A DNA stretch of 64,000 nucleotides from Heterodontus francisci (taxonomy: Eukaryota): NCBI RefSeq assembly GCF_036365525.1, contig NC_090378.1, positions 121,567,593 to 121,631,592 on the forward strand, written 5' to 3'. Positions 7,301 through 64,000 of the stretch are shown one piece after another (position 1 is the first letter of the stretch; each line of letters starts with the position of its first letter). Position numbers and translations under genes: made by a program. The notes under the pieces were generated by a model. The model saw only the letters and a list, made by a program, of their open reading frames with translations, did no database searches and was not told the DNA's origin.

Positions 7301-9942
7301 AACACTCCCACAGGGGATGCTGAGACCAAGTGGGCCCACATCAGAGACGCCATCTATGAGTCAGCTTTGACCACCTACGGCAAAAGTGCGAAGATAAATG
7401 CAGACTGGTTTCAATCTCATAATGAAGAGCTGGAACCTGTCATAGCCGCTAAGCGCATTGCACTGTTGAACTACAAGAAAGCCCCCAGCGAGTTAACATC
7501 CGTAGCACTTAAAGCAGCCAGAAGCACTGAAATAAGAACAGCCAGGCGCTGCGCAAATGACTACTGGCAACACCTATGCAGTCATATTCAGCTGGCCTCT
7601 GACACAGAAAACATCAGAGGAATGTATGATGGCATTAAGAGAGCTCTTGGGCCAACCATCAAGAAGATCGCCCCCCTCAAATCTAAATGAGGGGACACAA
7701 TCACTGACCAAAGCAAGCAAATGGACCGCTGGGTTGAGCACTACCTGGAACTGTACTCCAGGGAGAATGCTGTCACTGAGATCGCCCTCAATGCAGCCCA
7801 GCCTCTCCCAGTTATGGATGAGCTGGGCATACAGCCAACCAAATCGGAACTCAGTGATGTCATTGATTCTCTAGCCAGCGGAAAAGCCCCTGGGAAGGAC
7901 AGCATTACCCCTGAAATAATTAAGAGTGCCAAGCCTGCTATACTCTCAGCACTACATGAACTGCTATGCCTGTGCTGGGACGAGGGAGCAGTACCACAGG
8001 ACATGCGCAATGCCAATATCATCACCCTCTATAAAAACAAAGGTGACCGCGGTGACTGCAACAACTACTGTGGAATCTCCCTGCTCAGCATAGTGGGGAA
8101 AGTCTTTGCTCGAGTCGCTCTAAACAGGCTCCAGAAGCTGGCCGAGTGCATCTACCCTGAGACACAGTGTGGCTTTCGTGCAGAGAGATCAACCATTGAC
8201 ATGCTGTTCTCCCTTCGTCAGATACAGGAGAAATGTCGCGAACAACAGATGCCCCTCGACATTGATCTCACCAAAGCCTTTGACCTCGTCAGCAGACGTG
8301 GTCTCTTCAGACTACTAGAAAAGATTGGATGTCCACCAAAGCTACTAAGTATCATCACCTCATTCCATGAAAGGCACAATTCAACATGGTGGCTCATCAG
8401 ACCCCTTTCCTATCCTGAGTGGCGTGAAACAGGGTAGTGTTCTCGCACCCACACTTGTTGAGATTTTCTTCTCCCTGCTGCTTTCACATGCGTTCAAGTC
8501 TTCGGAAGAAGGAATTTTCCTCCACGCAAGATCAGGGGGCAGGTTGTTCAACCTTGCCCGTCTAAGAGCAAAGTCCAAAGGCGGCACAGTGGCTAGCACT
8601 GCAGCCTCACAGCTCCAGGGACCCGGGTTCGATTCCGGGTACTGCCTGTGTGGAGTTTGCAAGTTCTCCCTGTGTCTGCGTGGGTTTTCTCCGGGTGCTC
8701 CGGTTTCCTCCCACATGCCAAAGACTTGCAGGTTGATAGGTAAATTGGCCATGATAAATTGTCATTAGTATAGGTAGGTGGCAGGGAAATATAGGGACAG
8801 GTGGGGATGTTTGGTAGGAATATGGGATTAGTGTAGGATTAGTATAAATGGGTGGTTGATGTTCGGCACAGACTCGGTGGGCCAAAGGGCCTGTTTCAGT
8901 GCTGTATCTCTAATCTAATCTAATCTATGGAAAGTCCTCATCAGGGAACTCCTCTTTGCTGACGATGCTGCTTTAACATCTCACACTGAAGAGTGCCTGC
9001 AGAGTCTCATCGACAGGTTTGCGGCTGCCTGTAATGAATTTGGCCTAACCATCAGCCTCAAGAAAACAAACATCATGGGGCAGGACGTCAGAAATGCTCC
9101 ATCCATCAATATTGGCGACCACGCTCTGGAAGTGGTTAAAGAGTTCACCGACCTAGGCTCAACTATCACCAGTAACCTGTCTCTAGATGCAGAAATCAAC
9201 AAGCGCATGGGTAAGGCTTCCACTGCTATGTCCAGACTGGCCAAGAGAATGTGGGAAAATGGCGCACTGACACGGAACACAAAAGTCCGAGTGTATCAAG
9301 CCTGTGTACTCAGTACCTTGCTCCATGGCAGCGAGGCCTGGACAATGTATGTCAGCCAAGAGCGACGTCTCAATTCATTCCATCTTTGCCTCCGGAGAAT
9401 ACTTGGCATCAGGTGGCAGGACCGTATCTCCAACACAGAAGTCCTCGAGGCGGCCAACATCCCCAGCTTATACACACTACTGAGTCAGCGGCGCTTGAGA
9501 TGGCTTGGCCATGTGAGCCGCATGGAAGATGGCAGGATCCCCAAAGACACATTGTACAGCGAGCTCGCCACTGGTATCAGACCCACCGGCCGTCCATGTC
9601 TCCGCTTTAAAGACGTCTGCAAACGCGACATGAAATCCTGTGACATTGATCACAAGTCCTGGGAGTCAGTTGCCAGCATTCGCCAGAGCTGGCGGGCAGC
9701 CATAAAGGCGGGGCTAAAGTGTGGCGAGTCGAAGAGACTTAGCAGTTGGCAGGAAAAAAGATAGAGGCGCAAGGGGAGAGCCAACTGTGTAACAGCCCCG
9801 ACAAACACATTTTTCTGCAACACCTGTGGAAAAGCCTGTCAGTCCAGAATTGGCCTTTATAGCCACTCCAGGCGCTGCTCCACAAACCACTGACTATCTC
9901 GAGAGACAATGGGTAAGCGCCTGGAGGTAAGGAGGCAAAGAG
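7301..9942 (+). mobile_element. RTE-clade (BovB-like) LINE, 5'-truncated, nested in CR1
   Basis: NYCGISLLSIVGKVF, QCGFRAERSTIDM, DLTKAFD, GVKQG, LFADD, RRLRWLGHV, C-terminal CxxC..H finger; degenerate flanking repeat GAAACACCTCAA / GAAAGACCTTAA. Confidence 0.92.
8580..8926 (+). mobile_element. HE1/V-SINE family tRNA-derived SINE inserted in the RTE RT region
   Basis: GGCGGCACAGTGG head, B box GGTTCGATTCC, V-core TGTGTGGAGTTTGCAAGTTCTCCC, CR1-type tail with (CTAAT)n. Confidence 0.92.
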
Positions 9943-14327: not shown

Positions 14328-16803
14328 TCAAATTAAAATGCCATTTTCGGCGTCGACAATGCACTCCAGTCCCTGCGGTGCCCACCGGTCGCGGAAGGCC
14401 TCAAGCGTACCGGCGGATACCGCATGCTCCTTCTCCAGGGACACCCGGGCGCGAACGTAACCGCAGAAGAGGGGCAGGCAATCGGGGATGACGGACCCCC
14501 CGACGGCCCGCAACCTGGACCTGTGAATTGCCACCTTGGCCAGGCCCAGGAGCAGACCGACGAGGAGATCCTCCTCCCGGCCCAAACCCCTCCGCACCGG
14601 GTGCCCAAAGATCAGGAGCGTGGGACTGAAGTGCAGCCAGAATTTGAGGAGCAGCCCCTTCAGATACTCATAGAGGGGCTGCAACCTCGCACACTCCGTA
14701 TAAACATGGAACACGGACTCGTCCAGGCCGCAGAAAGTACAGGTGGCCTGGGAGTCCGTGAACCTACTTAAAAGCCTATTGCACGGGACTGCTCTGTGCA
14801 GCACCCTCCACCCCAAGTCCCCGATGTAAAGAGGGAAGACTCCCGCGTAGAGAGACCTCCATCGGGGTTTCCCCTCACCGCCAGATGGCAACGTGGACCG
14901 CCAGGGCGTGGCCGGCCAGCTGACGATGGCGAGGAAGTGGATAGTGTGCAGGAACAGCCCGTACAGGAAACCCCTCCGTGCCATTCCAATCGAAAAGGTA
15001 TACGTGATCCACCCTGTCGAACGCCTTCTCCTGATCGAGGGAGAGAAAGGCGACCGACTGACCAGTCCTCTGGGAAAGATGGATCAGGTCCCGGACCAGG
15101 TGGATGTTGTCTTGGATGGACCGGCCCGGGACCGTGTAGGACTGGTCGGGGTGGATCATGTGGGCCAGCACGGAGCCCAGGCGGGTAGACATAGCCCGGG
15201 CAAAGATCTTATAATCCGTGCTGAGGAGGGAGACCGGACGCCAGTTTTTAAGCAGGCGGAGATTGCCCTTCTTCGGCAGCAGGACGATGACCGCCCTGCG
15301 CCACGAGAGGGGCATCTCCCCGGTCGCCGGGCTTTCCCCCAGGACCCGCGCGTAATCGTCCCCCAGGACGTCCCAGAACGCCCTGAGGAACTCCACGGTC
15401 AACCCATCCAGCCCTGGGGATTTGCCTCGAGAGCTGGTGGAGGGCACCAGTCAGTTCTGCCAACGTGAGCGGAGCCTCCAATCATTCGGCGTCCTCCGGG
15501 CTGACCTGCGGCAGGTCCTCCCACAAAACTCTGCGCGCATCCTCGCTGGACGGATCCGGAGAGAACGCACTGTAATAAGTACGGACCAGGAGGCCCATTC
15601 CCTCCGGATCCGTGATGGAGGATCCGTCGTCGGCCAGCAGCTCAACGAGCTGCTTACGGACCCCCCGCCATTTTTCCAGCGAGTAGAAGAAGGGTGAGGC
15701 GCAGTCCAAATCTTCCAGGATCCGGATCCGCGACCTCACGTACGTGCCTCGGGACCCTATGAGCTGCAGGTCCCTCAGCGCGCCCTTCTTTTTGTACGCC
15801 TGCCACAGGGCCGGGTCTGCGACGGCATGACCGAGGCGGGACTCCATGTCGAGCACCTCCCTCTCAAGGCGCTCGATCTCGGCTTCCTGCCTCTTGGTCG
15901 ACCCCTTCGCGTACTCCTGACAGAAGACGCGGATGTGAGTCCTGCCCACATCCCACCATAGCCTCAAGGAGGGGAAGCCCCCCTGCTTCCTTCTCCAGTC
16001 GGCCCAGAATCGACAGAACGAGTCCCGAAATCGCTCGTCCTCCAGCAGCCGGTTGTTAAAGTGCCAGTACGTGGACCCTGCCCGCATGCGGAGCGGAGTG
16101 AACTCCACCCACACCAGGTGGTGGTCCGAGCACGGCACCAGCCGCATGGAGGCCGCCGAGACGCGGGAGACGTACGCCTGCGAAATGTAGAGGCGGTCGA
16201 TTCGGGACCCTCCTCCTCCAGACCTCCACGTGAAGGCGCTGGAGTCGGGATGGAGATTCCGCCAGACGTCCACCATGTTAAGGGAGCTGATCAGTCCCCT
16301 CAACTTCTCCACCGACGCTTGGCCGCGCTGGGGACCGGAGCAATCCCCCACCTCGAGGGTGCAGTTAAAATCCCCCCCCCCCCCCGAGGATGATGCACTC
16401 GCCGCTATCGATGGAGCTCAAGAGAGCAGACACTTCTTCAAAGAAGCGCGCTTGCAACGTGCCGGGCCTGGGCGCGTACACGTTCAAAGTGTAGCGGCAC
16501 GCTACCCAGGCGAATGGCGAGGTGGAGCAAGCGGCCCGGCACTAGCTCCTTGACCCCCAAGATCTCCGGCTGAAAAGTCGGGGCCAACAAGATAGCCACC
16601 CCACTAGAAATAGGGGTGAGGTGACTCATGTAGACCCCACCCTGCCACTCCAGGAGCCAGGTGGCTTCGTCTCCCGGAACGGTGTGGGTTTCCTGCAGAA
16701 AGCTCACCGCGTATCTCCCTTCCCTGAGGACTGAGAGATTGTGAAATCTGCAGTGAGACCCTCTGCTGCCGTTGATGTTGAGGCTGGCTATGGTTACCTT
16801 CAT
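14328..16803 (-). pseudogene. Tx1 ORF2 (APE endonuclease-RT), frameshifted and deleted at ~14991
   Basis: MKVTIASLNING..FLQETH..SRIDRLYIS..SDHHLV..KSPGLDGL..NWRPVSLLSTDYKIF..LDQEKAFDRVDH, then a direct jump to the C-terminal region; GxxQG and YADD motifs absent. Confidence 0.9.
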
Positions 16804-16835
16804 GTCAAAGGTACTTAAAACCCGTCACCAACAGC

Positions 16836-18846
16836 TCACTGTGAGGAGGGAGTGGAAGTGCACCTGGCCTTCCACTCCCCCAGCAACCCATTGAGGAACA
16901 CATTAAAACGGCCCCTCTCAACCAGTTTCACGCCCGTGCGCTTGCCCGCTTTCTTCAGGGCGGCACGGACGGACTGTATGATCTGCGCCAGATTCGACCA
17001 ACGGCCGAGGGCCAGCTGAACTTTATCGCGGCAACCCCTGCAAGCCGCGAGGAAATCCTGGAGTTCCACCATGGGGATAAGGGGAGATTCGGTGGGAGGC
17101 ACGAGGGACTCCACCACCTCACTGGCGATGGAATCAAGGTCATCCTCCGTGCCCCACACCGAATCCCCATCCTCCTCCGGGTCGTCACCGCCAGCGGCTG
17201 ACACATCCACCACACACTGTGGGGCGGACGTCCCGGCCGCGCCAGCTGGTCCTGCCTCCATCACGATCCCACCCCCAGGATCGATGGCGGAGGAGTCCTC
17301 TCCGGGTTCTACTGAGAAACTGGAGCCTGTGGGCGCCAGCAGTTCAGGATGCCCCTCCACATCCGTCCCCAGGCCAATGAGTGGTCCAGGGGAGACAGAA
17401 GTTCCCAACTCCGGAGCAGAGACCAGAGGCGGAGGGAGGAGGCTATCTCCTGCTCCGCCAGCACCCACAGGCCCAGCAGATGGGGCAGCATTCTCGGTTA
17501 TAACCGGGTCGGGTGTCTCCTGGTTGGTGGTGGACTCCGGCTGGGAGGGCTGATACTCTGGGTCCTCGCCCTCCCCTTCACTCAGGGCACCCGACCCAGT
17601 AGCAGTGGCAGAATGGGCGGCGTCCTCAGGCTCCCCCACCACAAGCAGGGCCCCACTTACTCCTTCAGGAGGGGCCTCAAGTACCGGGGCCTTCCCCTCC
17701 CCTCCATCCTGAGGAATAGGGTGCTCCTGCCTGGACTTTGTCGCCTTGGTGGTGGCGGTAGGGGAAACCTGGGGACCCGAAACAGGAGACAGCTCCCCTC
17801 CAACAGATGGGCCCTGCGCCTCAGGGCCCCTCGTTACCTCTGTGGAGGGGTGCCTTCTCCTCTTTTTCCCGCCAGAACGCAGAGGCTCAGAGACCTCCAT
17901 GTCATCAGAGGCCTCCGCACCCTCGTCCTTTTTAGTCACCCTAGGCCTGAGCCCAGCCCTGGGACAGGTGGATTCCATGAGAACGGGCTTTGGGCTGAGC
18001 TCAGGCTCGGGTCGTTTCAATATGTCCAGGGGATGCGCCTCTTGATGTTTCTTTTGCCTCCGTGTCTTCCTTCCACTCAGACGGGCACTCCCCTCCCCAC
18101 TGGAGGCTGTGAAAACCACAGCCTCCAGAACCGACTGTTGGATGTGTGGGGGGAGTGGGAGGAGGTGCTGTGGAACCACTCTGGGCCACCGAGGTGGAGC
18201 TGGCGGCCGGGAGGTTGGGGCAGTTCTTACGAACATGCCCCACCCCCTTACAGACGTGGCACCGCGCTCCGTCCGAGGTCCAAAAGACGTGGTAGGCCAT
18301 GCCCTGGAACTCCACATTAAATTGGCCTTCCAAGTCCTCCTCCCGCGCCAGCTGCATAAATAAATGGCGGCGGAAGGAGTAGACATGTTGGAGGCTGTGT
18401 TCCCGAAGACCAAGCCGGACTGGGGTGATCCCTGACCTCACCTCCCCCAGATGGTGTAGGTGGGGGAGGAGGAGCTCACTGGGAATGAAGGGTGGGACGT
18501 TTGATAACATTATCCACTGCGCAGTGGCCCCCAGAGGGTCCACCGACAGGAAGGTCACCCCCACAGTGAGCCCCTTATTCAGGGCCAGGGACACGGCCCG
18601 CTCAGTCTTTAGAAAAAACACAGCCTTCCCATACATCTTTGAGGCCGCAACAATAGCCGAGGGGCTGACAACCTCGGCCAATGCCTTCACACAGGCCTTA
18701 ATGGACATGTTGGGGTGGGGATAGCTCGTCACCCCATGGCTGGATGTTATTAATTTAAAAGGTGACGGGGCCACGTGGGCAGCCACAGAGGCTGCAGCTG
18801 CATAGGTTGTAGAGGGCCCCGCCACCTGTGATGAAGGGCTTGCCAT
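16836..18846 (-). pseudogene. Tx1 ORF1 (gag-like RRM + zinc knuckle), one frameshift near 18.1-18.2 kb
   Basis: MASPSSQVAG..ASKMYGKAVFFL..LSNVPPFIP..CHVCKGVGHVRKNC, then a long Pro/Ser/Glu-rich tail in another frame. Confidence 0.88.
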
Positions 18847-19696
18847 GGGTCTAAGAGCTAACCCACCCCAAATTGTAGGCTTGAAAATAACTATGCACAA
18901 AACAAACAAACAACAGGTTAGGGGAGAGGCTGAGGGAATAGAGGAGAGGGAAAGACAGGCTGTAAGTGATGACTTTCTTTCCTTTCTGGAGGTGGTGCAC
19001 ACAGCACACTTAAAACAGTCTCTGCCAGCACACTTGGTCTTACGATCTTCTGGTTGGGGGAGGCATCTTCACCTGGGTCAGCTGAAGCTGCCCAGGCACT
19101 ATTTATCCCCATCTGTGTATTAGCCAGGCAGCTTCAGCTGACTCAGGCTGGGCAATTGGGGTGGGGAGGGAGCTTCCCTGCAACTTTAGTGCAACTGCAC
19201 AGCTCCCTGCAGAATTCTATGGCCCCCACCCCTTGTTCTTCTGGCCTCTTACACCTCCCACAACAGTCCAAATGAAATGAGTCTGTGCTCAACACCCACC
19301 TCCAAATACAGACTTATTCCAAAAGTCTTTCCTCTGCAGCAAATGTTGAAAGTTTTTGCAGTTCCCTCCTCAGCACTCCCTCTCCAGCAGCACCTCCAGC
19401 AACTGTCAGCTGCACCTAATTGAGGCACTCAGTATTCCCAATCACAGAGGAGCCAATCCCCGTGCTGTATCTGCCCTGGGAGTGTTTGATTGGACAATGT
19501 AGACTCGTGCTGCCAAGTAAAACCTCTCGAAGATGCTGAAGACTGTCAGCTGAGCTAAAATAATGTGAACCTCAGAAGTCGCCGCTCAGTAAACCAGACC
19601 TCCTTCCTGCTCACTCTGCAGTTACAATTTAAAGTTTAGTCTCTGTTTAAAGCGACAGGATTCTCATGTTATTGAGAAAATCTCCACAACTGTTTT

Positions 19697-42608: not shown

Positions 42609-44304
42609 ACTGGATTGTGAAGTGTGATGTTCCTGAGTACACAGACTGGATTGTGAAGTGTGATGTTCCTGAGTACACAGACTGGATTGTGAAGTGTGAT
42701 GTATCTGAGTACACATACTGGACTGTGAAGTGTGATGTTCCTGAGTACACAGACTGGATTGTGAAGTGTGATGTACCTGAGTACACAGACTGGATTGTGA
42801 AGTGTGATGTTCCTGAGTACACAGACTGGATTGTGAAGTGTGATGTTCCTGAGTACACAGACTGGATTGTGAAGTGTGATGTTCCTGAGTACACAGACTG
42901 GATTGTGAAGTGTGATGTTCCTGAGTACACAGACTGGATTGTGAAGTGTGATGTTCCTGATTACACAGACTGGATTGTGAAGTGTGATGTATCTGAGTAC
43001 ACATACTGGATTGTGAAGTGTGATGTTCCTGAGTACACAGACTGGATTGTGAAGTGTGATGTATCTGAGTACACAGACTGGATTGTGAAGTGTGATGTAT
43101 CTGAGTACACAGACTGGATTGTGAAGTGTGATGTTCCTGAGTACACAGACTGGATTGTGAAGTGTGATGTTCCTGAGTACACAGACTGGATTGTGAAGTG
43201 TGATGTATCTGAGTACACAGACTGGATTGTGAAGTGTGATGTTCCTGAGTACACAGACTGGATTGTGAAGTGTGATGTTCCTGAGTACACAGACTGGATT
43301 GTGAAGTGTGATGTATCTGAGTACACAGACTGGATTGTGAAGTGTGATGTTCCTGAGTACACAGACTGGATTGTGAAGTGTTATGTACCTGAGTACACAG
43401 ACTGGACTGTGAAGTGTGATGTACCTGAGTACACAGACTGGATTGTGAAGTGTGATGTATCTGAGTACACAGACTGGATTGTGAAGTGTGATGTATCTGA
43501 GTACACAGACTGGATTGTGAAGTGTGATGTACCTGAGTACACAGACTGGATTGTGAAGTGTGATGTATCTGAGTACACAGACTGGATTGTGAAGTGTGAT
43601 ATACCTGAGTACACAGACTGGATTGTGAAGTGTGATGTTCCTGAGTACACAGACTGGATTGTGAAGTGTGATGTATCTGAGTACACAGACTGGATTGTGA
43701 AGTGTGATGTACCTGAGTACACAGACTGGATTGTGAAGTGTGATGTATCTGAGTACACAGACTGGATTGTGAAGTGTGATGTACCTGAGTACACAGACTG
43801 GATTGTGAAGTGTGATGTATCTGAGTACACAGACTGGATTGTGAAGTGTGATATACCTGAGTACACAGACTGGATTGTGAAGTGTGATGTTCCTGAGTAC
43901 ACAGACTGGATTGTGAAGTGTGATGTACCTGAGTACACAGACTGGATTGTGAAGTGTGATGTATCTGAGTACACAGACTGGATTGTGAAGTGTGATGTTC
44001 CTGAGTACACAGACTGGATTGTGAAGTGTGATGTATCTGAGTACACAGACTGGATTGTGAAGTGTGATGTTCCTGAGTACACAGACTGGATTGTGAAGTG
44101 TGATGTTCCTGAGTACACAGACTGTATTGTGAAGTGTGATGTATCTGAGTACACAGACTGGATTGTGAAGTGTGATGTTCCTGAGTACACAGACTGGATT
44201 GTGAAGTGTGATGTATCTGAGTACACAGACTGGATTGTGAAGTGTGATCTACTTGAGTACACAGACTGGACTGTGAAGTGTGATGTACCTGAAAACACAG
44301 GCTG
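42609..44304. repeat. 36-bp minisatellite, ~47 near-identical copies
   Basis: ACTGGATTGTGAAGTGTGATGT(TC/AT/AC)CTGAGTACACAG head-to-tail, no spacers. Confidence 0.97.
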
Positions 44305-44900
44305 GAGAGCAGAGAGAGGGCTCCCAAGTTTCCCGATGTGACACTGGAGACATTAATAGAGGAGGTACAAAGGAGGAGAGAATCAATGTTTGCACAAGGA
44401 GCCAGGAGGCCCTCAAAGCAAAACTCTCAGAAGAGAATGGGAGCGATGACCAGGGAGGTCAATTCCTGGAGTCTGGACCTGAGGACCTGACAGCAGTGTC
44501 GCGAGAAGTTCAGTGACCTCACAGGGGTGGTCAAGGTCAGTGAATGTAACTTCACAGGACATCTCCCACCAAGCACAGCACCAACCTCTCCTGCTGCTCA
44601 TTGTACCACACCCCCATCACTCACCCAGTAACAATCCCGAGCACTCAGGACTCACTCCTGACAGTCAAATCCTCCACCTCACCCTCACACTCCCACCAAT
44701 GCATCCTAACCGCAACCCCCACCCCCTGAAGAACCATGGTATCTCTGCTCCTACCCACCTCCACTGTTCATGCCTCTGTCATCCTTGAAGCCCCTCCCTC
44801 CCCTGGCATTCTGTTTGGCATCATTTAAACTTCAGCAATATTATTCAGTTCAGATTTCCTTTAAAAGGGACAGCCTGCCTTTAAGAAGAGCAGCCTGGCT
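44305..44900 (+). mobile_element. Second Harbinger Myb/SANT remnant
   Basis: RERAPKFPDVTLETLIEEVQRRRE..QQCREKFSDLTGVVK|gtcagt, paralogous to 36676-36910. Confidence 0.7.
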
Positions 44901-46022: not shown

Positions 46023-47136
46023 TGGATGAATGGAGCCTTGGCTGGAGACGGCACTGGATGGACGGAGCCCTGGCTGGAGACTGCACTGGATGAATGGAGC
46101 CCTGGCTGGAGACTGCACTGGATGAATGGAGCCCTGGCTAGAAACTGCACTGGATGAATGGAGCCCTGGCTGGAGACTGCACTGGATGAATGGAGCCCTG
46201 GCTGCAGACTGCAGTGGATGAATGGAGCCCTGGCTGCAGACTGCACTGGATGAATGGAGCCTTGGCTGGAGACTGCACTGGATGAATGGAGCCCTGGCTG
46301 CAGACTGCACTGGATGAATGGAGCCCTGGCTGGAGACTGCACTGGATGAATGGAGCCCTGGCTGGAGACTGCACTGGATGAATGGAACCCTGGCTTGAGA
46401 CTGCACTGGATGAATGGAGCCCTGGCTGGAGACTGCACTGGATGAATGGAGGCCTGGCTGGAGACTGCACTGGATGAACGGAGCCCTGGCTGGAGACTGC
46501 ACTGGATGAATGGAGCCCTGGCTGGAGACGGTACTGGATGGATGGAGCCCTGGCTGGAGACTGCATTGGATGAATGGAGCCCTGGCTGGAGACTGCACTG
46601 GATGAATGGAGCCCTGGCTGGAGACTGCATTGGATGAATGGAGGCCTGGCTGGAGACTGCACTGGATGAACGGAGCCCTGGCTGGAGACTGCACTGGATG
46701 AACGGAGCCCTGGCTGGAGACTGCACTGGATGAACGGAGCCCTGGCTGGAGACTGCACTGGATGAACGGAGCCCTGGCTGGAGACTGCACTGGATGAACA
46801 GAGCCCTGGCTGGAGACTGTACTGGATGAACGGAGCCCTGGCTGGAGACTGCACTGGATGAATGGAGCCCTGGCTGGAGACTGCACTGGATGAATGGAGC
46901 CCTGGCTGGAGACTGTACTGGATGGACGGAGCCCTGGCTGGAGACTGCATTGGATGAATGGAGCCCTGGCTGGAGACTGCACTGGATGAATGGAGGCCTG
47001 GCTGGAGACTGCACTGGATGAATGGAGCCCTGGCTGGAGACTGCATTGGATGAATCGAGCCCTGGCTGCAGACTGCATTGGATGAATGGAGGCCTGGCTG
47101 GAGACTGCACTGGATGAATGGAGCCCTGGCTGGAGA
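46023..47136. repeat. 32-bp minisatellite TGGATGAATGGAGCCCTGGCTGGAGACTGCAC, ~35 copies
   Basis: Direct tandem units. Confidence 0.96.
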
Positions 47137-47369: not shown

Positions 47370-47973
47370 AATAGGAGCAGGGGGAGGCCATTCGGCCCTT
47401 TGAATCTACTCCACCATTCAATATGATCATGGCTGGTCTTCTCACTCAATTCCACCTTCCCGTACTATCCCCTATTCCTTAATTTCTGTAGTAACTAAAA
47501 ATGTATGGACCCCTGTCTTCAATATACTCAAGGACTGAGCATCCACAGCTCTCTGGGATACAGAATTCCAAAGATTCCAAAGATTCACAACGTCTTGAGT
47601 GAAGAAATTTCTCCTTATCTCAGTCCGAAATGGCCGACCCCTTATTCTGAGACCGTGACCCCTAGTTCTAGATTCCCCAGCCAGGGGAAAACATCCTCCC
47701 AGTATCTACCCTGTCAATCACATTACAAATTGTATATCTTTCAATCAGATCACCTCTCATTCTTCTACATTTCAGGGAATAATGTCCCAGTCTACTCAAT
47801 CTCTCCTCATAGGACAATCCCCTCATCCCAGGAATCAGTCTGGTGAATCTTTGCTGCACTCCTTCCAAGGCCAGTATATCCTTCCTTAGGTAAAGAGACC
47901 AAAACTGTCCACAGTTCACCAGGTGTGGTCTCAGCAAGGTCCGATCGAACTGCAATAAGACTTCTTCACTCTT
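47370..47973 (-). mobile_element. CR1 LINE 3' end
   Basis: LRPHL..LEGVQQRFTRLIPG..RRMRGDLIE; hairpin tail. Confidence 0.88.
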
Positions 47974-47979
47974 ACATGT

Positions 47980-50900
47980 AGGGAGGTGGTGGTGTAGTGG
48001 TATTGTCACTGGACGAGCGACCCAGGGTATTACTCTGGGGAGATGGGTTCAAATCCCATCAGTGCAGAAGGTGAAACTTGCATTCAGTTAATAAATCTGG
48101 AATTAATGATGGCTATGAAACCATTGCCGATTGTTGTAAAAGCCCATCTGGTTCTCTAATGCCCTTTAGGGAAGGAAATCTGCCATCCATACTTGGTCTG
48201 GCCTCTATGTGATTCCAGTCCCAATGCGTTTTATACTTAATGCCTTCTGAGATGGCCTAGCAAGCCACTCAGTTGTATCTAGTTGCTACAAAGTCAATAA
48301 GGAATGAAACTGGACGGACCACACATCATTGACCTGGGCACCAGAAATGACAACGACAAATCCAGTCCTGTCAACCCTGCAAAGCCCTCCTTCCTAACAC
48401 CTAGGGATTGTGCCAAAATTGGGAGAGCTGTCCCACAGACTAGTAAAGCAACAGCCTGACATAGATATACTCACGTAATCATACCTTGCAGATAATGCCC
48501 CGGATACTGCCATCACCATCCCCATCCCCGCCTATGTCCTGTCCCACCGGCAGGACAGAACCAGCAGAGGGGACAGCACAGTGGTATACAGTTGGGAGGG
48601 TGTCCTCAACTGTGACTCCAGACCCCATGAAATCTCATGGCATCAGGTTAAACATGGGCAAAGAAACCTCCTGCTGATTAACACCTACTGCCCCCCTCAG
48701 CTGATGAAGCAGTACTCCTCCATGTTGAACAGCACTTGGAGGAAACACTGAAGCTGGCAAGGGCACAGAATATACTCTGGGTGGGAGTCTTCAATGTCCA
48801 TCACCAAGAGTAGCTCGGTAGCACCACTACTGACTGAGCTGGCCAAGTCCTAAATGACATAGCTGCAAGACTGTCTGCAGTAGGTGGTGAGTGAACCAAT
48901 AATAGGGTAAAACATACTTGACCTCATCCTCACCAAGCTGCCTGCCACAGATGCTTCTGTCCATGACAGTATTGGTCGGAGTGACCACCGCACAATCAAT
49001 GTGGAGACGAAGTCCCGTCTTCGTATTGAAGATACCCTCCATCATGTTGTGTAGCACTAGCACCGTGCTAAATGGGATAAATTTTGAACAGATCTAGCAA
49101 CTCAAAACTGGGCATCCATGAGGCACTATGGGCCATCAGCAGCAGCAGAATTGTACTCAATCACAATCTGTAACCTCATGGCTTGGCATATCCCCCACTC
49201 TATCATTACCATCAAGCCGGGGGATCAACCCTGGTTCAATGAAGAGTGCAGGAGGGCATGCCAGGAGAAGCACCAGGCATACCTCAAAATGAGGTGCCAA
49301 CCCGGTGAAGCTACAACACAGGACTACTTGCCTGCCAAACTGCGTAAGCAGCATGCGATAGACAGAGCTAAGCAATCCCATAACCAACGGATCAGATCTA
49401 AGCTCTGCAGTCCTGCCACATCCAGTCGTGAATGGTGGTGGACAATTAAACAACTAACTGGAAGAGGAGGCTCCACAAATATCCCCAACCTCAATGATGG
49501 GGGAGCCCAGCACATCAGTGCAAAAGATAAGGCTGAACCATTTGCAACAATCTTCAGCCAAAAGTCCTGAGTAGATGATCCATCTCAGCCTCCTCCTGAA
49601 GTCCCCAACATCACAGATGCCAGACTGCAGCCAATGCGATTCACCCTGCGTGATATCAAGATACAACTGAAGGCACTGGATACTGCAAAAGCTATGGGCC
49701 CTGATAACATTCCAACAACAGTACTGAAGGCCTGTGCTCCAGAACTTGTTGCGCCCATAGCCAAGCTGCTCCAGTTCAGGTACAACACTGGCATCTACCC
49801 TGCAATGTTGAAAATTGCCCAGGTATGTCCTAAGCACAAAAAGCTGGACAAATCCAACCCGGCCAATTACCGCCCCATCAGCCTACTCGCAATCATCGGT
49901 AAAGTGATGGAAGGTGTCATCAACAGTGCCATCAAGCGGCACCTGCTTAGCAATAACCGGCTCAGTGACGCTCAGTTTGGGTTCCGCTAGGGCCACTCAG
50001 CTCCTGACCTCATTACAGCCTTGGTTCAAACATGGACAAAAGAGCTGAACTAAAGAGGTGAGGTGAGAGTGACCGCCCTTGACATCAAGGCAGCATTTGA
50101 CAGAGTATGGCATCAAAGAGCCCGAGCAAAACTGAGGTCAATGGGAATCAGGGGGAAACCCTCCGCTGGCTGGAGTCATACCTAGCACAAAGGAAGATGG
50201 TTGTGGTTGTTGGAGATCAATCATCTGAGCTCCAGGACAACACTGCAGGAGTTCTGTAGGGTAGTGTCCTGGGCCCAACCATCTTCAGCTGCTTCATCAA
50301 TGAGCTTCCTTCAATTATAAGGTCAGAAGTGGGGATGTTCGCTGATGATTGCACAATGTTCAGCACCATTTGTGACTCCTCAGATACTGAAGCAGTCCGT
50401 GTAGAAATGCAGCAAGACCTGAACAATATCCAGGCTTGGGCTAATAAGTGGCAAGTAACATTCGCGCCACACAAGTGCCAGGCACTGACCATCTCCAACA
50501 AGTAAGAATCTAAATATTTTCCCTTGACATTCAATGGCATTACAATCGCAGAATGCTCCACTATCAATATCCTGGGGGTTACCATTGACCAGAAACTGAA
50601 CTGAAGTAGCCATATAAATACCATGGCTACAAGAGCAGGTCAGAGGCTAGGAATCCTGTGGCGAGTAACTCACCTCCTGACTCTCCAAAGCCTGTCCACC
50701 ATCTACAAGGCACAAGTCAGGAGTGTGATGGAATACTCTCCACTTGCCTGGATGGGTACAGCTCCAACAACACTCAAGAAGCTCGATACCATCCAGGACA
50801 AAGCAGCCTGCTTGATTGGCACCCCATCCACAAACATTCACTCCCTCCACAAGAGACCTACAATGGCAGCAGTGTGTACCATCTACAAGATGCACTGCAG

Positions 50901-51236
50901 TAAGACACCAAGCCTCCTTAGGCAACACCTTCCAAACCTGTGACATCTACCACCTAGATGGACAAGGGCAGCAGATGCATGGGAACACGACCACCTGCAA
51001 GTTCCCCTCCAAGTCACACACCATCCTGACTTGGAACTATATTCCCATTTCTTCACTGTCGTTGGGTCAAAATCCTGGAACTCCCTTCTTAACAGCACTG
51101 TGGGTATACCTACCCCAAATGGACTGCAGCGGTTCAAGAAGGCAGCTCACCATCACCTTCTTAAGGGCAATTAGGGATGGACAATAAATGCTGGCCTAGC
51201 CAGTGATGCCCACATCCCATGAATGAATAAGAAAAA
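47980..51236 (+). mobile_element. Single-ORF CR1/L2-group LINE with a tRNA-derived SINE-like 5' head
   Basis: A box TGGTGTAGTGG (47990-48000), B box GGTTCAAATCC (48046-48056), SINE body, then decayed EN-RT (QQPDI..FNVHH..SDHR..NYRPISLL..QFGFR..DIKAAFDRVWH..FADD); tail GAATGAATAAGAAAAA; TSD ACATGT (47974-47979, 51237-51242). Confidence 0.88.
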
Positions 51237-51611
51237 ACATGTCCAGGAGCTGACACAGAGTCTCTGTCTATCTCTCTCTCTCTCTCTCCATCTCACTCCC
51301 TCTCTCTCTCTCTCAATCTCTATCCCGTCTTCTACCTCTGAAGGTGTTCTATGGGTGTGAGTGTTTAATATAAGGTGGTGTTTGTCAGTATATTTTCTCT
51401 ACTGTATGGTTTATGAACATGGTGAGAGGGGATAAGGGGTCTGTTCTTTGATGTGCGGCAGTGATGTCTGTCCCAGTGACTCAGACTGTGATGCTGTTGT
51501 TTTCTGTGACTGACACTATGATATCGATTGTAATTTCACTCAGTGTGACAGGAGGTTACATGGCTTGATCAGTGGTGAGGGCGGAGCAGACTGAACAAGG
51601 AGCTGTAATCA

Positions 51612-52344: not shown

Positions 52345-52672
52345 TTCTCCAACACTCACTCCCTTCATCACTGGTGCACAGCGGCAGCAGTGTGCACCAT
52401 CTACAGGATGCACTGCAGCAACTCATCAACTCTCCTTTGACAGGACCTACCACCTAGGGGGACAGGGGCAGCAGACCCATGGGAACACCACCACTGTGGG
52501 TTTCCCTTCAAGTCACACACCATCTTGATTTGGAAATATACCACAGTTCCTTCACTGTCGCTGGTCAAAAATTTGGAAACACCTGCCTGGCAATGCTGTG
52601 GGTCTGCCTGCACCACATGGACTGTGGCGGATCGGGAAGGTGGCTCTCTACCAACTTTTTAAGGGCAATTAG
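52345..52672 (+). mobile_element. 3' fragment of the same LINE family as 47980-51236
   Basis: Colinear with 50835-51172 (AAVCTIYRMHCSN..AGGGCAATTAG). Confidence 0.85.
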
Positions 52673-62939: not shown

Positions 62940-63868
62940 TAAAAGCTTTGTGAAAGAAGCTGTTTTAAGGAGAATGCTTACGGAGAAGAACAATAGGGTT
63001 TTGAGGCAATTCCAGAATGTGGGGCCTAAATTTTGGGAAGTATGGCCATGAATGACGGGGAGAATGAAGGGACAGCAGGGGGTGGAAATGCACACGAGTT
63101 CAGCTCAAGAGTGCCTCGGAAGGTGGATGGAATCAGTGGCTATGTCAGTATTGGATGTCAGAGAAGCAGTGTTAGAAATCGGAAGCAGTGAAGGAGATGA
63201 AAGAGGTGGTGGTAAAAGCTGGTTGTTGCCACTGTACAAATGGAATCTTACTGTGCATTGGTTTATGTCCCCAAAGGACAGCATGTAGATGAGAAATAGG
63301 TAGGGGAAACCAAGATGTGGGAGCAGGAAGAGAAATCATTGCAGGTGATTCGCTGGCCACTACTGGAATGCTAGGAATGAAACCAGGTGAGGGCAGTCTC
63401 AGGCTGGATGACAGAGAAGCATTGGAGGAGGATGGTGTGGTCAACTGTGTCAAAGGCAGCAGACAGGTCGAGTAGGATGAGAAGTGATAATTAATGACAG
63501 TCACAATCATAAAGAATGCCATTTGTGACTTATTGACAAATGTTTCGATGCTGTGACAGGAATGGATACCTCACTGGAGAAGTTTAAACATGGAGCTGTG
63601 GGAAATTTGGGCAAGGATTTGGGAAGCAACAACACGTTCAAGAACTTTGGACAGGAAAGGGAAGTTGGAGATGGGCTGGTAGTTTGTAAGGACAGATGGA
63701 TCAAGTGTGGGTTTTTTGAGGAAGGGGGTGATGCCAGCATATTTGAAATGCTGTTGTATGTGACTTGGAAAGACACAAAAGGATGTGAGATTGGGATGGG
63801 AACCAGAATGTGAATGGAAAGGGAGGTGATCAGAAATGGTCGTATCTTTGATTGACGTGATGGGAGGT
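62940..63868 (-). mobile_element. L2-clade LINE RT fragment
   Basis: ITPFLKKPTLDPSVLTNYQPISNFPFLSKVLERVVASQI. Confidence 0.8.
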
Positions 63869-64000
63869 TTTTTTAATTCTTTCATGGAATGTGGGTGTCT
63901 CTGGCATGGCCAGCATTTGTTGCCCATGCCTAATTGCCATTTCAGAGGGCAGTTAAGAGTTAACCACATTGCTGTGGGTCTGGAGACACACATAGGCCAA
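63869..64000 (-). mobile_element. SINE 3' half sharing body and tail with the LINE at 47980-51236
   Basis: - strand TGGCCTATGTGTGTCTCCAGACCCACAGC..CTGAAATGGC|AATTAGGCATGGGCAACAAATGCTGGCC..CCATGAAAGAATTAAAAAA. Confidence 0.8.

Follow-up and report, generated by a model that had tools for sequence, protein, structure and literature searches.

A tRNA-headed, protein-coding Zenon LINE of sharks and rays as a probable transcription unit of RNA polymerase III

Our subject is a long interspersed nuclear element (LINE) located within a 64,000-nt stretch of the Heterodontus francisci genome (assembly GCF_036365525.1, contig NC_090378.1, positions 121,567,593 to 121,631,592 of the forward strand), hereafter referred to as the window. 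The element begins like a short interspersed nuclear element (SINE), with a tRNA-derived head and a body containing a block that we label, partly on assumption, as Deu-type, and then continues into a frame encoding an endonuclease (EN) and a reverse transcriptase (RT). According to the textbook divide, SINEs are non-coding and rely for transcription on RNA polymerase III (Pol III), whereas LINEs are transcribed by RNA polymerase II (Pol II). Here, we report that two subfamilies of this LINE consistently start with the SINE-type head at their 5' end and that the EN-RT frame has been under purifying selection while carrying it. Matched on the first 400 nt of published consensuses, the family is the abundant Zenon LINE that Stuart et al. 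2026 described from elasmobranchs (PMC13343379). Our preferred explanation is that source copies of the shark-and-ray Zenon are probably transcribed end to end by Pol III and translated without a normal start codon. If so, a natural and long-lived protein-coding Pol III unit would break the rule separating SINEs from LINEs and would show an open reading frame (ORF) reshaped to pass Pol III, while a single element would render testable both the function of the conserved Deu domain and the origin of matching SINE heads and tails.

A preliminary description of the window, made from its sequence alone, had noted this arrangement of head, body, EN-RT frame and A-tailed 3' end between two ACATGT hexamers, all of which are present (Table 1), and had proposed recurrence of the head-ORF joint as the check on whether the head belongs to the LINE. 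The genome comprises 6.0 Gb, and copies located on contig C8, where the window's region is duplicated, were set aside from all dispersed counts. A 461-nt query spanning the body-ORF joint was searched and the best 40 of 8667 candidates were scored, 9 of them on C8 and 31 dispersed. The joint was covered in all 31 dispersed matches at 84-86%. In 25 of these copies the first 11 nt hold the start; the 4.3 kb fetched include the 3' end of 22, and 19 are complete at both ends. As a guard against query bias, a second query held the EN region only, and 30 loci were fetched of its 40 matches, one being the query's own locus. From these, 17 begin at nt 1-10 of the family majority sequence, 11 inside the head or body and 2 below; the head is thus present in 28/30 loci, and no relatedness among the 40 nt upstream is visible by eye. 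The same 30 loci revealed no other shared leader, no longer leader and no ORF1, and the family majority has no further long sense frame upstream of the EN-RT frame. The preliminary description had regarded the lack of ORF1 as unusual, which is not the case for this lineage: Zenon LINEs are described from elasmobranchs, coelacanth and hagfish, all with poly(A), and they "universally lacked ORF1" (PMC13343379). One match of a separate SINE search ran on into a LINE leader, and a search with that leader returned an older subfamily (B), in which a SINE-type head leads into the ORF at 24/24 further loci. From these counts, the one-off insertion of a LINE into a SINE is ruled out.

The two subfamilies are 92-95% alike, with a median distance from their own majority of 9.5% in B and 3.8% in A, to which the window copy belongs. 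Boxes A and B lie at majority nt 10-20 and 74-84 in both, and the 5' ends of the LINE copies coincide with the SINE start. In two-ended copies, an A-run follows (TGAA)2 as a poly(A) tail. Target site duplications (TSDs) of at least 5 nt flank 5 of 20 two-ended copies (4/19 without the window copy), compared with 5.3% of swapped pairs (permutation P=0.001), so TSDs do recur more often than by chance, but in only a minority of copies. Likewise, the ACATGT hexamers at both ends of the window copy are probably a real TSD, but they are short, family TSDs are patchy and the argument is independent of them. The same tRNA-type head opens 7/7 elasmobranch Zenon consensuses from 5 species (PMC13343379 rows), as opposed to 0/3 from hagfish (2) and coelacanth (1) within the first 400 nt, the coelacanth 5' end being of low confidence. 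Among the published consensus rows, the exact 18-nt joint motif is present in 5 and a 20-nt Deu motif in 5 Zenon rows, and the first 400 nt are collinear by eye. No chimaera Zenon was recovered.

Both subfamily majorities contain one long frame with EN and RT motifs, and a sister copy (L051) retains a natural 937-aa open frame in which Pfam recognizes EN and RT; for the protein P0001, the Pfam matches are RVT_1 (1.5e-35) and Exo_endo_phos_2 (2e-12). An intact consensus ORF had been proposed as a further check on the element, and the family frame is both open and selected. Between A and B, dN/dS is 0.16 (dS 0.153, dN 0.025), and the indels separating them measure 3 and 6 nt inside the frame versus 6 and 4 nt in the head. 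Within A, we compared variants shared by at least 15% of copies with singletons, leaving out CpG and CTAG changes. The shared variants comprise 17 replacement changes, 23 silent changes and 0 stops, compared with 1263, 483 and 87 for singletons (P=4e-5). With its 3.3 kb and selected 975-codon frame, the long element is not a SINE, which would be short and non-coding, and without an ORF1 it is not a canonical CR1 either, which has two ORFs and an esterase ORF1. Protein homologues of the Zenon ORF are 24-37% identical and the local CR1 proteins are 25-35% alike, a PDB search returned L1 ORF2p and R2 only (E 1e-14 to 1e-4), and metagenome scans by pattern and by protein gave no match. In distant relatives (P0007 and P0010, 29%), a PHD finger is fused in frame to EN-RT within one ORF. 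In addition, pieces of the Zenon ORF occur in frame and at 82-83% identity in gene models of a Heptranchias aldo-keto reductase (P0006) and a Mobula protein (P0044), which suggests exonisation or mis-annotation.

Depletion of TTTT terminators on the sense strand had been predicted for a Pol III-transcribed LINE, and this prediction was borne out. TTTT occurs 0 times in both subfamily majorities, 16/19 dispersed copies in the first alignment are free of it, and its density in raw copies is 0.18 per kb versus 3.27 for CR1. The loss extends to TTT spanning adjacent codons. From 3000 synonymous shuffles, 10.0 (A), 11.4 (B) and 10.4 (natural copy L051) cross-codon TTT were expected, compared with 0 observed, and no shuffle was as low; each TTT in the frame is a Phe codon. 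Similarly, words with four T in five positions occur once versus 6.6-8.1 expected, and runs of A, C and G are found at expected frequency. Phe itself makes up 1.85% of the protein, which is under all 39 homologues of at least 800 aa (lowest 2.51%, median 3.57%). Two CR1 families and an RTE piece of the same genome are without such T-run loss: an old CR1 has 10 cross-codon TTT versus 12.9 expected and 10 TTTT in 2485 nt, a young two-ORF CR1 has 28 versus 27.2, and the RTE piece (T3) has 6 versus 8.2. The copies of the young CR1 family (L192-L199) are 96-99% alike, with ORF2 frames of 830-970 aa.

The frame is also without an opening AUG. The stretch from an amber codon (majority nt 304) to the EN domain contains none. 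An in-frame AUG is found two codons before the amber codon, inside the Deu block (window 48252), at a distance of 141-144 nt from the EN start in both subfamilies. Among 7 published consensuses, the AUG-GCC-UAG keeps the frame in 3 and is shifted in another 3, one of which has an added UAA, while the seventh is without the stop; these were counted by hand from consensuses that drop bases. An AUG in the +1 frame is present in A and in 6/7 published consensuses, yet in 1/24 B copies (also counted by hand). An apparent UGA at majority nt 397 in a 20-copy alignment is a decayed CpG (39 C and 18 T in 57 copies), and thus the frame extends to the amber codon. We also considered selection for loss of the amber codon, whose T is kept in 24/24 B copies and changed in 13/58 A copies. 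The carriers are scattered over the tree, however, and similar variation is seen at other CTAG sites on either strand, which indicates a mutation hotspot in the DNA and led us to reject this candidate. In family A as a whole, CTAG, TTAG and GTAG words form a strand-symmetric mutation hotspot, where CTAG ranks first or second among contexts for both kinds of change, with T>G at 5.4% and A>C at 4.2%. Divergence between A and B is just 2% over majority nt 176-322 and 2.5% over 361-441, versus a dS of 15%, and this sequence comparison suggests constraint at the RNA level. Tentatively, we would place initiation in an AUG-independent mode or in reinitiation behind short upstream frames, an option a little short of even. 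Readthrough of the amber codon seems unlikely, and universal readthrough from AUG-GCC-UAG is weakened by 4/7 published consensuses, which drop bases and may themselves err. Frameshifting from the +1 upstream frame seems unlikelier still, and it is a speculative and doubtful idea that the Deu domain doubles as the translation leader of the LINE.

Of the alternatives to Pol III transcription of a coding LINE, the one surviving best, though improbable in our estimation, is that a Pol II promoter is provided by the head or hidden within it, with boxes A and B kept by exchange with the abundant SINE and T-poverty arising from avoidance of U-rich decay or cleavage signals. LINEs are indeed taken as Pol II-transcribed (PMC5786205), exchange is conceivable with a head and SINE 96.7% alike in B, and the absence of TTTT by itself is a weak signal. 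Such a promoter, however, would have to accommodate the CR1 and RTE controls that kept their T-runs in the same genome and the coincidence of LINE 5' ends with the SINE start, and a capped RNA would leave the missing opening AUG unexplained.

The SINE with which the LINE shares its front is itself represented at the end of the window, continuing ~237 nt beyond it with a full head. The SINE search returned 30 matches, and 19 of the 20 dispersed copies fetched consist of head, body and tail, a ~400-nt plan of tRNA head, Deu domain and LINE tail. The SINE majority is 96.7% alike to subfamily B over LINE nt 1-332 and 94.9% over the last 79 nt, compared with 88.3% and 93.7% for subfamily A; the two heads within the window are 70% alike. 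In its plan the short element is SacSINE1-like, its name resting on the published description, and it corresponds to the LINE's first ~322 nt joined to the last ~79 nt. A tRNA head, Deu domain and LINE-derived tail characterize SacSINE1 and LmeSINE1 in sharks, skate, chimaera and coelacanth (PMC5499810, PMC4824008, PMC3747384), and the Deu domain is described as including Nin (PMC4824008). The preliminary description was therefore right that the SINE matches both ends of the LINE, but the joint that it named (GGC|AATTAGG) is a private 28-nt deletion found in 0/19 dispersed SINE copies, as opposed to the usual CAGTTG|TCAAGGG.

Two histories had been offered for this likeness, internal deletion of the LINE or capture of a SINE by the LINE, and capture of an older SINE fits better. 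Capture of the SINE front by an elasmobranch Zenon, with the SINE later renewed from the LINE or by head exchange, is likelier because chimaera and coelacanth possess related SINEs (PMC5499810), because Deu/Nin is far older, being found from cnidarians to vertebrates, and because the hagfish and coelacanth Zenon consensuses have no head in their first 400 nt (PMC13343379). The opposite history, in which the SINE-headed LINE is ancestral, the DeuSINEs of jawed vertebrates are internal deletions of it and the Deu block is a LINE leader, strikes us as rather doubtful. It draws upon the identity of the SINE with the LINE's two ends, upon the low divergence of the Deu block and nt 361-441 (2-2.5% versus a dS of 15%), and upon other SINEs whose bodies come from LINE 5' UTRs (PMC5786205). 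It is opposed by the occurrence of Deu/Nin in SINEs with other tails, by the hagfish and coelacanth consensuses, headless over their first 400 nt, and by the lack of any chimaera Zenon among those recovered, with the reservation that the coelacanth 5' end is of low confidence. Since it concerns history, it is compatible with transcription by Pol III.

A different route to the same RNA would be co-transcription from host promoters, with the tRNA-like head cut out by RNase P-type processing to leave an uncapped RNA, as the R2 ribozyme gives. This route would account for the precise 5' ends and the tRNA-like fold called by ARAGORN, and R2 RNAs are both uncapped and translated by structured leaders (PMC9967249). 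Yet it does not predict T-run loss along the ORF, and intact boxes A and B suffice to explain the ends, so we judge it quite improbable. Least probable is that the headed element is a non-autonomous passenger of an unseen conventional Zenon and its ORF untranslated: no AUG opens the frame and a rare parent could be missed among matches that were the best 40 of the candidates, but the dN/dS of 0.16 between headed subfamilies, the exclusively in-frame indels of the frame, the excess of silent shared variants, the natural 937-aa open copy and the lack of any other leader in 30 EN-selected loci all speak against it.

Our preferred reading of a Pol III-transcribed coding LINE can be assembled into the following model. 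In the stem lineage of elasmobranchs, template switching would have supplied an ancestral Zenon with the front part, head and body, of an older DeuSINE. TFIIIC bound to the internal A and B boxes would then allow each full-length insert to bring its own promoter, and Pol III could read the 3.3 kb since TTTT and near-terminators would have been purged, even at the cost of Phe, stopping at the first T-run in the flank. Translation of the uncapped RNA would proceed at a low level, starting either independently of an AUG or through reinitiation after short upstream frames. The resulting protein would bind the 3' hairpin tail, insert the RNA by target-primed reverse transcription and mobilise the SINE as well, and internal deletion of the LINE, or exchange of heads with it, would give rise to the SINE anew. 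On balance, we lean toward an autonomous LINE whose transcription by Pol III predates the split of sharks and rays and whose 2.9-kb coding part was recoded by selection to avoid terminators, with an uncapped RNA without an opening AUG and the capacity to spawn SINEs by simple deletion. Sequencing-run contigs of 4 organisms cover all 30 bins, the body-ORF joint is bridged by contigs in X4 and X11, and the SINE joint is a loose end in 4/4.

Several results weigh against this reading. These contigs are only guessed to be RNA, and transcription itself, polymerase, cap state, start site, strand and protein are not readable from them. Absence of TTTT alone is not significant (P=0.08 by synonymous shuffles and P=0.16 by dinucleotide shuffles), so the T-run signal rests on TTT and T-rich words, and A and B, being 92-95% alike, are not independent instances of it. 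New TTT is also not significantly rarer among shared variants (1/40) than among singletons (53/1833) in A, and the T-run controls are CR1 and RTE elements, with no head-less Zenon DNA among them. Furthermore, codons 4-48 carry no dN/dS signal (0.92 on 9 changes), and folding of the leader against shuffles revealed no special structure (z=-0.18). No start mechanism is universal, with AUG-GCC-UAG out of frame or absent in 4/7 consensuses and the +1 AUG limited to 1/24 B copies.

The window copy is a dead, decayed member of this dispersed 3.3-kb LINE family. In comparison with the family majority it has 18 in-frame stops and 10 deletions, and at ~8% it is the most diverged member. Pfam detects RVT_1 in 2/5 of its frame pieces. 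The frame ends at a stop codon at 51172-51174, and the tail with its A-run reaches position 51236. A tRNA-like gene is called by ARAGORN at 47993-48067, an Rfam search of the LINE gave no match, and base 47980 is G in 17/20 copies.

Table 1. Features of the headed LINE and the neighbouring SINE in the window (TSD, target site duplication)
Feature	Position	Strand	Basis
Left copy of probable 6-nt TSD (ACATGT)	47974..47979	+	Sequence; 6-nt match in 1.1% of swapped flank pairs
tRNA-derived head opening with the G-run of the family 5' end; box A at 47990-48000 and box B at 48046-48056	47980..48067	+	Sequence, ARAGORN, dispersed copies
SINE body including Deu-type block (from ~48143), common with SINE to CAGTTG	48068..48275	+	Majority alignments; name from descriptions in PMC5499810, PMC4824008
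In-frame AUG-GCC-UAG within Deu block, sole in-frame AUG close before EN domain	48252..48260	+	In frame in subfamilies A, B and 3/7 published consensuses
Single EN-RT frame, 975 codons after UAG in family majority; this copy broken by 18 stops and frameshifts	48261..51174	+	
3' tail common with SINE: nested hairpin, (TGAA)2, poly(A)	51161..51236	+	Hairpin folded in sister copy
Right copy of probable TSD (ACATGT)	51237..51242	+	
3' part of SacSINE1-like SINE (~370 nt, runs past window), private 28-nt deletion at body-tail joint	63868..64000	-	

Other repeats surround the element. A 5'-truncated CR1 fragment (47371-47971, minus strand) ends 3 nt from the left ACATGT, with no continuation on the right side, and at 52351-52672 (plus strand) the Zenon family is represented a second time by an older 3' fragment that is 72% alike. 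A long LINE at 14328-19068 (minus strand), with a zinc-knuckle-like ORF1 piece and EN-RT pieces, presumably resembles elements of the Tx1/L1 clade, and RT frames at 7691-9764 (plus strand) are of what we take to be the RTE/BovB type. Two minisatellites, at 42609-44306 (36 nt x 47) and 46023-47136 (32 nt x 35), have 94-95% matches; the former contains stop-free frames of 547-642 codons on both strands, probably as a by-product of its unit. On contig C8, the window's region recurs at ~114-124 Mb in 9-10 copies of 97-100% identity and in both orientations, which suggests a recent segmental duplication or gene cluster.

Several known systems share part of this arrangement. R2 elements are co-transcribed by RNA polymerase I at the ribosomal DNA, have no promoter of their own and differ from Zenon in clade and endonuclease. 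Their likeness is functional, as R2 is a coding non-long terminal repeat element whose transcript is uncapped, not made by Pol II and translated from an unconventional start (PMC9967249). Closer in descent is lepidopteran Zenon, which has repeatedly given internally deleted derivatives (Persaeus SIDE) composed of its 5' and 3' parts, as here, but Persaeus is described as having no tRNA homology and no Pol III promoter (PMC6740152). A LINE with tRNA-like sequence, RTE-1_DAn, is mentioned in PMC5786205, where such matches were filtered as accidental and not studied. The same survey catalogues bipartite RTE/Vingi SINEs that possess both LINE ends, in which a tRNA head was added to a LINE derivative rather than borne by an autonomous LINE, and we found no CR1-group case there. 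No description of a Zenon with a tRNA head, or of a Zenon or other LINE driven by Pol III, came up in our literature search, which did not extend to Repbase, Dfam or subscription journals. The SacSINE1 and LmeSINE1 DeuSINEs have the same plan as the local SINE (PMC5499810), but their descriptions tie SINE to LINE by the 3' tail alone (L2-2_CM, 78.6%; "CR1-4_DR-like"), whereas in our case head and body are common to SINE and LINE in their entirety. Lastly, the consensuses CarCar_, HypSab_, RhiTyp_ and ScyCan_Zenon-1 and SquAca_Zenon-1/2/3 have the same 2.9-3.3 kb, absence of ORF1, poly(A), head, Deu block and leader (PMC13343379). The family and the SINE were thus already described. In the main text of that study, however, the words "tRNA", "promoter" and "polymerase" occur 0 times, and there is no discussion of the head, the SacSINE1 link, the loss of T-runs or the missing AUG.

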